Positions 1-40,669 are shown, counted from the stretch's first letter. The stretch is 64,000 bases of DNA from Candidatus Saccharimonadota bacterium (GCA_028289135.1 JAQGGW010000001.1:12018-76017), one strand, 5' to 3'. Made by a program: numbers and translations. Notes: generated by a model from the letters alone, not told the origin.

Positions 1-94
1 AGCCGCCTTTTATCGTCGAGTCTACGTTCGAAGTAGTCCACCTGTCTGCCGGTCCTTTAGTGTTAATTTGTCAGTGGTTTTTGTGTTTTTGTTT

Positions 95-266
95 TATGGA
101 TAAGTCTATTTTTGGCTTACCCACGATTACCCACTAGCGACAGCATACTACCCACACTTACCCACGTGCAAGTATATTATGCTGAGAAATGCCTCAGTTC
201 AATCCACTTATCCACAGTTTTACTGATCACCCTGCATATACACAACCTGTGGTGTATTGTGGGTTA
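95..266. promoter_or_regulatory. cluster of DnaA-box-like 9-mers (candidate oriC fragment or DnaA-regulated region)
   Basis: Read by eye: TTACCCACG 117-125, TTACCCACT 127-135, CTACCCACA 148-156, TTACCCACG 158-166, consensus TTATCCACA 208-216. Inverted copies: TATGGATAA 95-103 and TGTGGGTTA 258-266. T-rich tract at 75-99. No ORF >=60 aa in 1-497. Caveat: no dnaA/dnaN in the window, and genes to the right are on the minus strand. Confidence 0.4.
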
Positions 267-308: not shown

Positions 309-447
309 GAGTATTTACTCCCATTGCCCTATGCCTTGGAAGTTTCGGCACATTGATTTAGCCGCTGGAGACAGTTTTACGCTATTAAATCACTGTACTA
401 AAACCTCCCATGAACCCTCACTTTATAGCTAAAAACTCTGTAAAGCT
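309..447. ncRNA. long-hairpin element H1, copy 1 of 2 (homologous to 22394-22535)
   Basis: Hand alignment to 22394-22535. Arms 338-360 and 386-408 form an imperfect 23-bp stem. The 25-nt loop GCCGCTGGAGACAGTTTTACGCTAT is almost identical in the other copy. ORF-free. Confidence 0.45.
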
Positions 448-5834: not shown

Positions 5835-6467
5835 CTATTTCTTGGTAGGTTTTTTGTTGAAGCCTTTATAAGCTAGGTCGCGGCGCTTTTCGTCGAGCCG
5901 GATAATGTATTTGTCGAAAGGTTTTAATAGGCTCGAATATTGCCAGTTTGGCGCCAGCAGGCTGTCCAGCTTTTGCTGCTCCACAAGGTATTCAACCAGG
6001 CCAAAGAAGTCCCCGTCCCCTGATACAACGACGGCTTTGTTATAATTTGGCATTTCCTTAACGGCATAGAGCACCAGCTCGGCGTCAACATTGCCCTTTG
6101 TCGCCGGTTTTTTATCTTCGGGCTTTTCGGTATGAGTTTTAATCCGCTCGGCAAGGTCAGCTTTTTCTTGGTCGGTTGACTGTTTGGCAAACATTTCGAG
6201 CGTTGGTTTTAATACAATCAAATAACCAAGGTCATGCATCTGGTCATACAGCTTTTCGTTGTCCGGCAAATAGCCAATAAACATATAGGCTTTCTCGACG
6301 TTGTGAACTTCTTTTAAATACAACCGAAACCGTCGCCAGTCCATTTTCCAACCCATTTTTTGGATTCCAAGGTTCAGGTTTTGGCTGTCAATAAAGGCGT
6401 AGTTGGCTTTAGCGGGCTTGGGTTGCTGCTTATTCTGCGGTTTTTTATTTCGCCGGAACGGTTTCAT
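5835..6467 (-). CDS. NYN/LabA-like domain protein (putative RNase fold)
   Basis: AFIDSQNLNLG near the N-terminus and VVSGDGDF, typical of the NYN (PF01936) family. Confidence 0.75.
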   Translation of the reverse strand: MKPFRRNKKPQNKQQPKPAKANYAFIDSQNLNLGIQKMGWKMDWRRFRLYLKEVHNVEKAYMFIGYLPDNEKLYDQMHDLGYLIVLKPTLEMFAKQSTDQEKADLAERIKTHTEKPEDKKPATKGNVDAELVLYAVKEMPNYNKAVVVSGDGDFFGLVEYLVEQQKLDSLLAPNWQYSSLLKPFDKYIIRLDEKRRDLAYKGFNKKPTKK

Positions 6468-9262: not shown

Positions 9263-10003
9263 CTATCTGTACTCAGGGTTTGGATCAGCAGCGTTGCCTG
9301 CAAAGCCGCGGTGATTGCCTTTGTCCCACACGCCGCGTTGGTTGCCGTATGCCGGAATTCCGCCGTTATCTTTAAGCATTTTGGCAATGTGCATCAGGTT
9401 CCAGGTCATAAACGTGGTGTTTTTGTTGGTAAAGTCACTTTCCAGCCCGCCTGAGCCTTCGTCCAAATAACTTGGGCCTGGCCCAATGGCGCCAATCCAG
9501 CCGGCATCAGCTTGCGGCGGAATAACGTAACCTAGGTGCTGTAAACTATACAAAATATTCATGGCGCAGTGCTTCACTCCGTCTTCGTTGCCTGTAATCA
9601 AACAGCCGCCAACCTTGCCATAAAACGCATACTGCCCGTCTTTGTTAAGCTCCGAAGAGTTGCCGTACAGCCGCTCAATCACCTTTTTCATAACCGAGCT
9701 GTTGTCACCCAGCCAGATTGGCCCGCAAAGCACCAAGATGTTGGCCGACTGGACCTTTTTATAGATCTCCGGCCATTCGTCTGTATCCCAGCCGTGTTCT
9801 GTCATGTCCGGATAAACCCCGGTTGCAATGTCATGATCGATGGCGCGGATCTGCTCGACCTCTACACCCTGTTTGCGCATAATATCAATACTAATTTTAC
9901 TTAAGCCCTCGGTGTTGCTGACCGCTGGTGATTTTTTGAGCGTGCACTGGATAAAAAGTGCTTTTAGACCCGAAAAATCCCATGTTTGCTGTGCTTCCGC
10001 CAT
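9263..10003 (-). CDS. flavodoxin-like NAD(P)H-dependent FMN reductase family protein
   Basis: Flavodoxin-fold pattern: ALFIQCTLKKSP, ANILVLCGPIWLGDNSSVMKKVIERL. Confidence 0.75.
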   Translation of the reverse strand: MAEAQQTWDFSGLKALFIQCTLKKSPAVSNTEGLSKISIDIMRKQGVEVEQIRAIDHDIATGVYPDMTEHGWDTDEWPEIYKKVQSANILVLCGPIWLGDNSSVMKKVIERLYGNSSELNKDGQYAFYGKVGGCLITGNEDGVKHCAMNILYSLQHLGYVIPPQADAGWIGAIGPGPSYLDEGSGGLESDFTNKNTTFMTWNLMHIAKMLKDNGGIPAYGNQRGVWDKGNHRGFAGNAADPNPEYR

Positions 10004-10063
10004 ATAGTCCCCTTTTTATAAAACTATCATAACACCAGCCCAAGCAACTGCTCGTAAACTAAC

Positions 10064-21680: not shown

Positions 21681-22340
21681 CTACGGCGAAAAGGTTATGC
21701 TTGGGAGCACTGTATTCAGGAAGTCGCTGGTATAATTGCTGCCTTCGGTCCAGATAATAATCGTCTTGTCGCGGATTGGCAGAAGCACCAAAGTACCAGG
21801 AGTCGTGCCGTGGATCTGGCCAGTAATTATTGAACCTAGCACACTTGGGACCTTTGGAGCGCGGTAAGCCGTTACAGTTGAAGTGCCAGCCTTTGCTACC
21901 GCGTCATATGCCTTTAACAGCGTCGGATAGGCGGTACCTGAGATCTGCACCCGCAGCGCAAACTGGGCAGTCGAAGAAAGATCAGGAATAAAATCCGGGT
22001 TATAGTAATTATTTACAATCAGGTTAAGGTTGCTTGTGCCAATATATGAGTTCCAGGTTTTTGGAAAGCTATAGGTCAAAGACCCGTAGGTATCTGGGCC
22101 CGTAAAGCTTTTTGTAGGGAACTTTTCAGTTTCCCTAAAAGCCGCATCCTTTTTGATATCCTCAGCAGCCACGGCTTTCTTGGCAGCAACTTCGGCTTTC
22201 GCGTCGCTGTTGTTCTTATAATCCTGGCGGCTCATAAAAGCCCAGGTTCCAAAACCTGCCGCAACCAAAAAGAACAAAGATAAGATGACCAGCGGCAGCA
22301 GCAAAGACCCTGTTTGATTAAGCTTACGCATATTAGTCAT
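21681..22340 (-). CDS. membrane-anchored extracytoplasmic protein (219 aa), unknown function
   Basis: N-terminal TM span LLLPLVILSLFFLVAAGFGTWAF. The rest is hydrophilic. Confidence 0.6.
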   Translation of the reverse strand: MTNMRKLNQTGSLLLPLVILSLFFLVAAGFGTWAFMSRQDYKNNSDAKAEVAAKKAVAAEDIKKDAAFRETEKFPTKSFTGPDTYGSLTYSFPKTWNSYIGTSNLNLIVNNYYNPDFIPDLSSTAQFALRVQISGTAYPTLLKAYDAVAKAGTSTVTAYRAPKVPSVLGSIITGQIHGTTPGTLVLLPIRDKTIIIWTEGSNYTSDFLNTVLPSITFSP

Positions 22341-22393
22341 ATAGTAGCATAAGCCCCTTGCTCCAGTGAAGCCCTTCCAATCGTATCACTGCT

Positions 22394-22535
22394 AAGTCTT
22401 TGCTCCCGTCGTCCCACTCCTTGGAAGTTTAGGCACATTGATTTAGACCGCTCAGAGACAGTTTTACGCTATTAAATCAACGTGCCTAAACTTCCCGTAA
22501 CATTAACCATGTAGCTGAAAGTCTCGTGAAGCCCC
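22394..22535. ncRNA. long-hairpin element H1, copy 2 of 2
   Basis: Arms 22423-22445 and 22473-22495 pair at 22 of 23 positions. The single A.C becomes G.U on the minus strand. The 27-nt loop is conserved with copy 1. ORF-free region. Confidence 0.5.
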
Positions 22536-22562
22536 CGGATGGGGCTTCACCTTTGGTTTGGA
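22526..22562. other. GC-rich hairpin GTGAAGCCCC/GGGGCTTCAC followed by CTTTGGTTTGG
   Basis: 10-bp perfect stem (22526-22535 / 22541-22550) with a 5-nt loop. The U-rich trailer is on the plus strand only. A third GTGAAGCCC copy lies at 22366-22374. Confidence 0.4.
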
Positions 22563-22570
22563 GTTCTTTG

Positions 22571-22815
22571 TGAGAAATAGGTAGCGAATAAGTGACTAGC
22601 GGCCGGAGCCAAAGACCTTAGGGGATGGCAGGCATCGCCCGCAGCCACGGCTAAGACTCGCCAAAGCTACAACAAAATCCAGCCGAGGACTGTTTGACGG
22701 AGCGTTTAGCTCCTAGTTCCGCAGGCTTGTTGTAGGCTTTGGCTGGAGGCTTACCGAGATGTGGGTGGCCTGACGGCGGCTAAGGTCTTTAGCTGAGAAA
22801 GGACGGCTACTTTCC
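22571..22815 (-). ncRNA. rod-shaped structured element R, copy A (homolog of 40244-40490, inverted)
   Basis: Closing helix 22607-22620 / 22781-22794. Apical core 22678-22697 and 22715-22733 is identical to copy B. The 17-nt terminal hairpin covaries. No ORF >=60 aa. Strand is tentative. Confidence 0.55.
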
Positions 22816-23304
22816 TAACGGGTATTTATAAAGCATCAAACCGCCCTTTTTGGCAGCGGGTTTGCGGCCGGGGATTTTAAAGGCGTAGCTCACTAGCTTA
22901 ACTGGGTTAGATAAATCTTTCGTAATTTTTTTATCGAGTCTCGGCATAAATTTGTCTAACAAAAACACATAAATCCCGTCACACTCAGGCAAAGTTACCT
23001 GCCAATAATTGCGGCATTTAAATGTTACCAGCTTGCGGTAGCGCCAGCAGCTAATCTGGCTGTACCAGACCAAAAGCGGGTTCAGCTCGTAACCAATCCC
23101 GCTTATTCCCTGCTTGGCAGCACGCTTTAAAACCCGTCCGTCGCCGCTGCCCAGCTCCAGCAAAATCTGCCCCGGTTTTAGATCCAACAGGTCCAGTGCG
23201 TTTTGTGCCTGCGGCTTAAGTGTTGGCAAATAAGGTGCCCCAAACAAGATAACAAATGAAAAGACGAGGATTAAAAAAACGGCGAAAAGTATAGCAATAT
23301 TCAT
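22807..23304 (-). CDS. class I SAM-dependent methyltransferase with N-terminal TM span
   Basis: SAM motif I LLELGSGDGRVL. 165 aa. Confidence 0.75.
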   Translation of the reverse strand: MNIAILFAVFLILVFSFVILFGAPYLPTLKPQAQNALDLLDLKPGQILLELGSGDGRVLKRAAKQGISGIGYELNPLLVWYSQISCWRYRKLVTFKCRNYWQVTLPECDGIYVFLLDKFMPRLDKKITKDLSNPVKLVSYAFKIPGRKPAAKKGGLMLYKYPLGK

Positions 23305-26021: not shown

Positions 26022-26051
26022 TTTTACCGCCTATCCTCGCCCTTAAAGGCT

Positions 26052-26114
26052 AAAATTCCTGAAAAATATATAAGCTTATATCTAGATAGGCTTAGTATAT
26101 TTTTCAGGAATTTT
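26052..26114. terminator. AT-rich perfect 19-bp inverted repeat, probable bidirectional terminator
   Basis: AAAATTCCTGAAAAATATA at 26052-26070 and its exact complement at 26096-26114. The 25-nt spacer is itself near-palindromic. T-runs flank it on both strands. Confidence 0.55.
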
Positions 26115-26156
26115 ATCTCTTTAATCATCGTGGATATTCTGCAAAGATGCCATTTT

Positions 26157-40243: not shown

Positions 40244-40490
40244 CTGAAGTCTCCCTTTCTTAGCTAAACCCCTTCCATCCTGGCATGCCGCACCCACCTT
40301 TAGGTAAGCTCCCGGTCAAGAGACACAACAAGCCTGCGGAACTTGATGCTATACGCATCTTCAAACAGTCCTCGGCTGGAATTTGTTGTGTCCTTGACGG
40401 AGCTTAGCCTCAAAAAGTGTGTGAGCATGCCAGGCTGTAAGGTGTTTAGCTTGCGGACGCTTAACACTTTTTTGCTACTCATTTCTCATA
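40244..40490 (+). ncRNA. rod-shaped structured element R, copy B (inverted relative to copy A)
   Basis: Closing helix 40262-40274 / 40439-40451. Apical core 40325-40343 and 40361-40380 is identical to the reverse complement of copy A. Terminator-like GTGTTTAGC-N8-GCTTAACAC-TTTTTT at 40442-40473 on the plus strand. Strand is tentative. Confidence 0.55.
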
Positions 40491-40518
40491 ATACTTTAGA
40501 AACACACATATCGTACGG

Positions 40519-40669
40519 AGGACTATTCCCCCAATACTCTCAAAGGTACTAAAGAACCCTGAGAGGAGCCGGGAAATGGCAGATGAGACCAGGCTATTTT
40601 ATATATAGGCTCATCTGCCATTTCACCGCGCGTGAACGGTACCTTTGAGAGTATTGGGGGAATAGTCCT
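40519..40669. repeat. 150-nt near-perfect palindromic element (MITE-like or structured RNA)
   Basis: Perfect 30-bp outer arms at 40520-40549 / 40639-40668. Perfect 15-bp inner arms at 40573-40587 / 40610-40624. AT-rich apex. Confidence 0.6.

Follow-up and report, generated by a model that had tools for sequence, protein, structure and literature searches.

Several kinds of hairpin-forming modules have been described from the intergenic regions of bacteria. In enterobacteria, repetitive extragenic palindromic (REP) units and bacterial interspersed mosaic elements (BIMEs) are hairpins placed between the end of a gene and the promoter that follows, found in both orientations and assembled into mosaics with other motifs; the roles proposed for them are the stabilisation or termination of transcript 3' ends and the docking of proteins. 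REP units are small (~35-40 nt), have short loops, reach hundreds of copies and are mobilised by REP-associated tyrosine transposases (RAYTs). Correia repeat-enclosed elements (CREE) of Neisseria and the miniature inverted-repeat transposable elements (MITEs) of the ERIC/RUP type are units of 100-150 nt that form a long hairpin when transcribed and lie near promoters, affecting neighbouring genes. CREE have defined terminal inverted repeats, duplicate a TA target and are present in ~100 or more copies; according to PMC2649163, they are binding sites for IHF, and RNase III binds or cleaves them. Here we describe H1, a long-hairpin element found in a 64,000-nt stretch of the genome of a Candidatus Saccharimonadota bacterium (GCA_028289135.1, JAQGGW010000001.1:12018-76017; the whole stretch is called the window below). 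H1 is similar to each of these systems in some respects, and we have filed it under the broad kind of bacterial intergenic palindromic or hairpin modules, and no Rfam family matches it. From alignment and covariation we regard it as settled that H1 is a discrete, conserved hairpin module. Our tentative reading of its role, to which we give a probability of about 0.38, is that it is a selected intergenic hairpin that would act as a folded single strand, likely a minus-strand RNA, and would serve as a transcript-boundary or as a processing or stabilising hairpin.

The initial annotation of the window had recognised H1 as a ~140-nt repeat present twice, in direct orientation and 22 kb apart, and our alignments agree. 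By blastn, positions 310-446 matched 22395-22532 in direct orientation with 77.9% identity over 140 nt (E 2e-23), and both MAFFT and a repeat finder (families D1/D2) concurred on the two copies. An H1 24-mer and an H1 28-mer are common to both copies and occur nowhere else in the window, where shuffled sequence leads one to expect 0. Covariance-model hits to copy 1 scored 165 and 105 bits, and a covariance-model search of the 64-kb window, filters off, did not find a third copy. The unit consists of a 23-bp stem, a loop of 25-27 nt and ~25-30 nt of conserved flank on each side; the hairpin itself is 73 nt long, with about 41-42% G+C, an AU-rich stem and a 3' flank that begins CCAAGG.

The arms of copy 2 (22423-22445 and 22473-22495, 27 nt apart) are 96% complementary. 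As first counted, 22 of the 23 positions are paired, all of them Watson-Crick, and the remaining position, an A.C on the plus strand, is a G.U on the minus strand. The stem of copy 1 has 18 Watson-Crick pairs, three G.U, one A.C and one G.A in minus-strand terms, and its five imperfect positions divide, again as first reported, into three that are G.U on the minus strand only, one that is G.U on the plus strand only and one that is mismatched on both. Three further H1 sequences were recovered from related genomes (L018, L019 and L026; relatives' loci and contigs carry L numbers throughout), giving a set of five together with copies 1 and 2. In the alignment of these five, 95.6% of stem cells pair and six pairs show double compensatory changes. 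Pairing and double changes this high were reached in 1 of 500 shuffles, and sliding the partner columns reduced pairing to 30-47%. The bulk of the covariation is contributed by copy 2. The loop motifs AGCGTAAAA, GTCTC and AGCGG are invariant in all five sequences. The suspicion that H1 is more than a chance hairpin is borne out, and the loop is conserved in L018, L019 and L026, as the initial annotation had required of it.

The same alignment bears on the question of strand. Minimum free energies favoured the minus strand in all five copies (minus/plus, in kcal/mol: -34.2/-25.7, -46.7/-37.1, -40.7/-33.9, -36.9/-29.5 and -27.3/-25.7), the second pair of values being that of copy 2 (z about -3.8). 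Positions that are G.U on one strand only number five on the window's minus strand vs. one on the plus strand, with the inverted copy of L026 included, and four distinct positions vs. none when copy 1, a chimera discussed below, is omitted. The hint of a minus-strand RNA that had been drawn from copy 1 thus holds weakly across genomes. Together these patterns point to selection on the predicted hairpin and are suggestive, for the strand, of a preference for the minus strand.

We reached the orthologs of H1 by walking along conserved gene order from an NYN-domain protein (window 5835-6467), not by scanning for exact cores. Exact-core searches with GAGACAGTTTTACGCTAT in species-representative genomes and with GACAGTTTTACGCTATTAA in the JGI metagenomes, as well as a search of the IMG/VR viral genomes, returned chance matches without the stem only, and these patterns missed the relatives because the relatives' loops differ by one or two bases. 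Gene order is constant in the relatives: NYN, Pif1 helicase, GH1, a spacer of ~260-860 nt, mraZ, rsmH, a small unnamed open reading frame (ORF), a penicillin-binding protein gene and mraY. The mraZ end of the window fits this order, its DNA matching the starts of PF02381 MraZ genes in L018, L019, L021, L023, L025, L026 and L027. Each relative in which H1 was found has one copy per locus set, each time in the mraZ spacer, and we found none outside this spacer in ~180 kb of the relatives' loci. We take it as settled that the ancestral home of H1 lies upstream of the mraZ promoter: it is the spacer that separates GH1 from mraZ and the dcw cluster in a small, soil-dwelling clade of Saccharibacteria, and copy 1 is the ancestral copy.

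Between genomes the H1 core is 90-100% identical, in the neighbourhood of genes whose four-fold degenerate sites are only 29-56% identical. Since such sites are near saturation while the core is kept, the core is under purifying selection or has been exchanged recently. Similarity declines gradually into the flanks with no sharp ends, which fits selection better than it fits a block that has recently moved. Window copy 1, L018 and L026 do not differ at all in the sense 5' arm. A loop-like match at L027 6019-6053 was considered as a decayed H1, but it has an E value of 0.7-0.8 and no hairpin fold, and it was left out of all counts.

The head of the dcw cluster carries other conserved non-coding features, namely the mraW RNA motif of Actinobacteria (Rfam RF01746) and the MraZ boxes. 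The mraW motif is located between mraZ and mraW, in the mRNA leader. H1, unlike it, lies upstream of the mraZ promoter, and it is also separate from the MraZ boxes, ~150 nt further upstream. Coordinates of these and the other features are collected in the table.

Table. Features of H1, its neighbours and its counterparts in related genomes. Positions without a locus name refer to the window.
Feature	Position	Strand or orientation	Source and identity of the NYN protein	Remarks
H1 copy 1, whole repeat unit	310..447	(-)	window	ancestral copy by paralog alignment and orthologs; ~140 nt upstream of mraZ promoter
Copy 1 stem, sense 5' arm	386..408	(-)	window	GGAGGTTTTAGTACAGTGATTTA on the minus strand; ancestral type A
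Copy 1 loop, 25 nt	361..385	(-)	window	minus strand reads ATAGCGTAAAACTGTCTCCAGCGGC; departs from copy 2 and L018 at 2-3 positions
Copy 1 stem, sense 3' arm	338..360	(-)	window	copy-2-like type B'; stem therefore mispaired
H1 copy 2, whole repeat unit	22395..22535	(-)	window	paralog specific to this genome
Copy 2 hairpin, type B/B' stem	22423..22495, loop 22446-22472	(-)	window	6 departures from type A, each compensated
H1 ortholog	L018 15224-15372	same as mraZ	JGI Ga0500643_000011; 96%	
H1 ortholog	L019 14105-14260	same as mraZ	GCA_043743105.1; 92%	
H1 ortholog	L026 9996-10138	inverted relative to mraZ	GCA_043745485.1; 77%	
mraZ start	1..41, GTG at 41-39	(-)	window	VDYFERRLDDKRR...; gene runs off the window
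Four direct GTGGGTAR boxes, putative MraZ operator	117..165	(-)	window	spacing 10/21/10 nt; overlap mraZ promoter
Conserved promoter of 219-aa gene	22341..22370	(-)	window	TTCACT 22370-22365, 18 nt, TACTAT 22346-22341
Canonical intrinsic terminator	22526..22550	(+)	window	10-bp stem, 7 G-C pairs, tail CTTTGGTTTG; not part of the conserved module
Element S, rod-like, ~190-230 nt	22570..22800	(-)	window	
Element S	40254-40491	(+)	window	
Element S	L018 15028-15232		L018	
Element S	L007 9637-9931		L007	
Element T	40519-40669		window	
Element T	L019 13926-14081		L019	
Element T	L023/L024 14748-14875		L023/L024	
Element T, fragment	L026 ~9985-10012		L026	

The placement of H1 suggests how it might work. 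It always occupies a spacer, with an upstream unit (the GH1 gene, or one of the elements S and T described below) ending on one side and the next promoter region on the other, and four of the five copies are co-oriented with the downstream gene. A minus-strand RNA would arise when transcription of S or of the upstream gene reads through, and the hairpin would mark a transcript boundary shortly before the promoter that follows. It would do so without a U-tract, at a 3' end, as a site of processing or as a stabilising structure; its 23 bp of double-stranded RNA would be long enough for RNase III, and in this we infer that the stem is comparable to that of CREE as an RNase III substrate. A specific partner may in addition read the sequence-constrained loop and stem.

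As a stable hairpin between transcription units, H1 resembles intrinsic terminators, including the 'I-shaped' hairpins that have no U-tract. It differs from them in its AU-rich 23-bp stem, in its sequence-conserved loop of 25-27 nt and in having no U-tract on the favoured strand. Scans of either strand called no terminator at H1 itself. Canonical U-tract terminators are no commoner in the window than in shuffled sequence, so U-tract-less hairpins could plausibly do the terminator's job here. The early observation that no U-tract follows the hairpin is correct for the minus strand but not for the plus strand, on which a canonical terminator (22526-22550) stands 31 nt past copy 2. That terminator sits between element S and copy 2, one of its arms being the end of the H1 unit; no plus-strand gene was found upstream of it, and it has no counterpart at copy 1 or in L018, L019 and L026.

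Several observations weigh against a transcript-boundary role. The H1 of L026 is inverted with respect to both flanking genes, and read-through RNA there would be the weaker, antisense hairpin. The G.U asymmetry comes from few independent events (about p = 0.06), and in L019 the middle of the stem is unpaired while the loop is retained. H1 is not found in the GH1-mraZ spacer of four related genomes (L021/L022, L023/L024, L025 and L027), and because these do without it upstream of mraZ, the element is dispensable. Both arms are identical across genomes (24/24 nt), which exceeds what a purely structural terminator would need, and a partner that binds double-stranded (ds) or single-stranded (ss) DNA would explain arm identity equally well. 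Both minus-strand transcription of H1 and the choice of strand are things we infer from sequence. The inverted L026 copy, the patchy distribution and the conservation of arm sequence keep alive two other readings, of H1 as a mobile element and as a protein-binding site.

The first of these would make H1 a non-autonomous mobile or selfish palindromic repeat of the REP/BIME, ERIC or MITE-like sort, spread and homogenised at the DNA level through an ssDNA hairpin that a trans-acting enzyme recognises, and landing in permissive spacers together with the elements S, T and X. We consider this somewhat less likely than a transcript-boundary role. H1 occurs in both orientations at the same spacer, as L026 shows. 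It is patchily distributed among close relatives, being present where the NYN protein is 96, 92 and 77% identical and absent at 79, 75 and 73%; the GH1-mraZ spacers that lack it hold other long palindromes or nothing. An extra copy stands where six relatives have none, the core hardly differs between genomes despite saturated synonymous sites, sequence has been exchanged between the two copies, and independent short-read contigs break inside the loop at both of them. H1 also forms mosaic clusters with other long-hairpin families (S, T and X) in the same spacers, as REP/BIME elements do, and it lies like them after genes and before the next promoter. It parts from REP/BIME in the size of its ~140-nt unit, in its 23-bp stem and conserved loop of 25-27 nt, in copy number, with two copies in 64 kb, and in the matter of RAYT: in a Pfam scan of 28 window proteins, a minority of the ORFs, none matched a RAYT, transposase, integrase or TnpA.

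The low copy number, with no copy outside the mraZ spacer in the relatives' loci, counts against mobility, as do the gradual fading of similarity into the flanks and the lack of the exact core in the viral, metagenome and species-representative collections. The ends of the unit match at no more than 7 of 9 nt (AGTNTTT), leaving the central stem as the sole strong inverted repeat, and the bases flanking 310/447 and 22395/22535 share no duplicated motif. In lacking terminal repeats and target duplication and in its low copy number H1 differs from CREE, and it differs further in being retained at one orthologous locus in several genomes. As far as the 64-kb window and the ~180 kb of relatives' loci show, H1 is not a high-copy MITE with target-site duplications, the outcome that the initial annotation had named as telling against its reading. 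Integron attC sites and the ends of IS200/IS605 elements offer another likeness, in that they too are strand-specific hairpins in which pairing and parts of the sequence are constrained, but the attC core motifs GTTRRRY/RYYYAAC are not matched by the GTTTAGG/CCTAAAC of H1. We also considered whether the two copies could be the attL and attR of an integrated island and rejected the idea: the 22 kb between them carries RecO, GlyRS and others, and is syntenic with the relatives on both sides of copy 2. A blastn comparison of S plus H1 with phage genomes gave no match.

H1 could instead be a small RNA (sRNA) gene in its own right, transcribed from the minus strand, whose 25-nt loop serves for base pairing or protein docking and whose copies are paralogous sRNAs. 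The strand asymmetry does follow the element and not the neighbouring genes, as the inverted L026 copy shows; the loop hardly varies, whereas covariation is seen in the stem of copy 2; and ~25-30 nt of flank are conserved on each side. An sRNA gene would be expected to have its own signals, and the five 5' flanks have no -35/-10 pair in common (crude consensus scans, in a phylum whose promoters are poorly known). No terminator follows on the minus strand, and the sole canonical one nearby is on the opposite strand and at copy 2 only. An outer helix joining the two flanks, predicted from the two window copies alone, was lost with four sequences. Rfam 15 gave no match to H1 or S at gathering scores over the whole window, and at a permissive threshold the region 22300-22900 returned only spurious miRNA and snoRNA matches far below threshold. 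On balance an independent sRNA is improbable. Two other RNA-level candidates were rejected. Small ORFs and Shine-Dalgarno-like motifs (GGGAGG, AAGGAG) in and after the stem have no conserved start codon or frame, and complementarity of the loop to the ribosome-binding region of mraZ (AGACAG) is present in this genome only and not in L018 or L019.

Still less probable is a site in duplex DNA, an inverted-repeat operator or a cruciform, where some regulator or nucleoid protein would bind ahead of two promoters, that of mraZ and that of the two-component operon next to copy 2. It would account for the conservation of both arms in sequence and not merely in pairing, both copies do lie upstream of promoters, and a response-regulator gene is present in the operon downstream of copy 2. 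The six coordinated two-sided changes of copy 2 would be unnecessary for independent half-sites, however, and a conserved spacer of 25-27 nt between 23-bp half-sites would be atypical. The distance to the promoter varies (~25 vs. ~140 nt), the orientation flips in L026, and a G.U/A.C asymmetry is not expected of duplex DNA. The heptamer TAGCGTA is present in the H1 loop, in the block upstream of mraZ and in the promoter region of L009; as a transcription-factor site it was rejected, with 11 occurrences in the window vs. 6.7 expected and thus no enrichment.

The context given in the initial annotation would make H1 a leader or regulatory RNA acting in cis on genes for exported proteins, or alternatively an element tied to a replication origin: copy 2 lies 55-90 nt upstream of a gene for a membrane-anchored protein, and copy 1 stands beside box-like repeats that were taken for a cluster of DnaA boxes. 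Both ideas now appear very improbable, and we regard it as settled that H1 is linked neither to an origin nor to secretion genes. The conserved copy is followed by mraZ, which does not encode an exported protein, and the supposed DnaA boxes proved to be four direct GTGGGTAR repeats at the mraZ promoter. The MraZ boxes of E. coli contain GTGGG. MraZ binds direct repeats upstream of its own gene (PMC8475190), and the boxes in the window overlap a TTGCAC...TATGCT promoter and are kept in all seven related genomes. Within this region only 95-103 (one mismatch) and 208-216 (perfect, plus strand) match the DnaA box TTATCCACA to within one mismatch, and the window-wide count at that tolerance is 15 vs. 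12.6 expected. The candidate ORFs that were compared with Pfam include neither dnaA nor dnaN. We rejected an origin here. MraZ operator repeats (GTGGGTAA), when read on the opposite strand, resemble DnaA boxes and form an annotation trap that can lead to a mistaken origin.

Other features were noted around mraZ. Upstream of the GTGGGTAR boxes lie the perfect DnaA box TTATCCACA and a palindrome, ACACCACAGGTTGTGT, at ~236-251; a DnaA-like box is present in all seven relatives, exact in most, and the ACACCACAGGTTGTGT palindrome is recognisable in most. The plus-strand ORF 498-908 encodes JWO47_12 (136 aa) of a Candidatus Saccharibacteria metagenome-assembled genome, for which ~5.8 billion proteins yielded no homolog. 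This ORF occupies the place that element S holds at the mraZ locus of the closest relative, L018; it may be a lineage-specific gene or no gene at all. The spacer between mraZ and rsmH is unusually long in three relatives (340-530 nt; L018 15968-16310, L021 16568-17101, L023 15540-15907) and could hold another non-coding element.

The surroundings of copy 2 tell equally against a link with exported or membrane-protein genes. Copy 2 lies in the spacer upstream of a membrane-protein/two-component operon, and the 219-aa membrane protein is JWO47_41 of the same metagenome-assembled genome. The orthologous spacer runs between a methyltransferase-like gene and the 219-aa gene; it measures ~45-155 nt in L009, L011, L021, L023 and L025 and ~590 nt in L007, where it is filled with other elements. 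None of these six relatives has an H1 there, so that the orthologous membrane-protein genes do without it, and by this comparison copy 2 is specific to this genome. A conserved promoter lies between copy 2 and the gene, and H1 is therefore upstream of that promoter and outside the gene's leader. The same promoter arrangement is seen in L007/L008 and L009/L010, and L011-L013 retain the -10 and the ATG. The gene probably starts at the conserved ATG at 22331 and not at 22340. The -10 lies ~10 nt before this ATG, which implies a leaderless or nearly leaderless mRNA.

The two copies have not evolved independently. In minus-strand terms, the 5' arm of copy 1 differs from that of L018 at 0 of 24 positions and from that of copy 2 at 6 of 24, while its 3' arm differs from L018 at 5 of 24 and from copy 2 at 1 of 23. 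The five imperfect pairs of copy 1 arise because an ancestral A arm pairs with a B'-type arm, and copy 1 was probably overwritten in one arm from copy 2 by gene conversion, with a boundary in or near the loop. The first description had a near-identical 3' arm and a 5' arm of copy 1 that had drifted. The former holds in minus-strand naming; on the plus strand, on which the arms were first written, it is the 5' arm (338-360 vs. 22423-22445) that differs at one position and the 3' arm (386-408 vs. 22473-22495) that differs at six. Drift is not the explanation of the divergent arm, which is the one identical to the L018 ortholog, the other being copy-2-like, as in a mosaic. Two independent Logan contigs of SRR13312994 (L001 and L002) end inside the H1 loop, at points equivalent to window ~22461 and ~363, and each carries the gene adjoining one H1 copy; the longest exact stretch common to the copies is 25 nt. 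These contig ends could reflect strain heterogeneity, recombinant junctions, loss of coverage or an assembly problem at the hairpin.

H1 keeps company with other structured elements, of which the rod-like element S is the most prominent. The S at 22570-22800 lies directly 5' of copy 2 on the same strand, and an S lies likewise directly 5' of the H1 upstream of mraZ in L018, these two S copies being 92% identical. The S-then-H1 order thus occurs twice, which suggests that S and H1 were copied as a pair to the new site in this genome. The window S folds at -92 kcal/mol (z -3.7), and single-sequence z-scores were -3.7 and -5.8. Of the 68 pairs in the consensus of S, 18 show compensatory double changes. 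S has an asymmetric conserved apical domain and comes in two subtypes and in either orientation relative to its neighbours. By these measures S is a candidate new structured RNA, and a stronger candidate than H1. We asked whether the H1 loop is homologous to this apical domain and dismissed the idea, as local alignments were no better than shuffles. A long hairpin stands 3' of every one of the four S copies, namely H1 (at 22 kb in the window and in L018), T (window 40519-40669) or X (L007), and the combinations S+H1, T+H1, S+T and S+X occur within the same spacers of different genomes.

Element T is a ~150-nt palindrome with perfect outer arms of 31 nt, an inner 20-bp hairpin and a motif, CCGTTCACGCGCGGT, that is common across genomes; it adjoins S in the window, downstream of a release-factor gene, and H1 in L019. 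The window holds seven long inverted repeats, of which six are intergenic. One of the window's palindromes, at 26051-26115 just upstream of xseA, is an AT-rich perfect 20-bp hairpin with a 25-nt loop. It has the geometry of H1 and gave weak matches to the model, but its sequence is unrelated and we rejected it as a member. A weak match with H1 geometry also lies upstream of xseA in a relative (L009 6584-6676). Other long-palindrome families fill the GH1-mraZ and copy 2 spacers of the relatives (L027 5848-5965 and 6120-6235; L007 ~9470-9580), and L027 has in addition a short tandem repeat, GGTAATTCTGG, in 2-3 copies. Across the clade the two spacers look like hot spots for hairpin elements.

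The recurrent order of these elements raises a more speculative, and on present evidence improbable, picture, in which H1 would be one cassette of an undescribed system of Saccharibacteria, members of the Candidate Phyla Radiation (CPR). A novel structured RNA, S, would always precede one of several interchangeable long hairpins (H1, T or X), and the invariant 25-nt loop of H1 would be a specific docking or kissing-loop site, coupling expression of the dcw cluster with that of the two-component operon. If this were true, H1 would be a trans-acting or protein-recruiting regulatory RNA module and not a passive spacer structure.

On present evidence H1 is lineage-restricted, low-copy and dispensable, its transcript is putative, and its general interest is modest. 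The type A and type B stems nonetheless provide a clean small example of compensatory evolution followed by a probable gene conversion that broke the stem. Saccharibacteria have genomes of ~1 Mb with little spare DNA, and to our knowledge almost nothing has been learned of non-coding regulation in their uncultured members. In such genomes, that a hairpin of ~100 nt should stay nearly unchanged at the head of the cell-division cluster, despite saturated synonymous sites, argues for a function.

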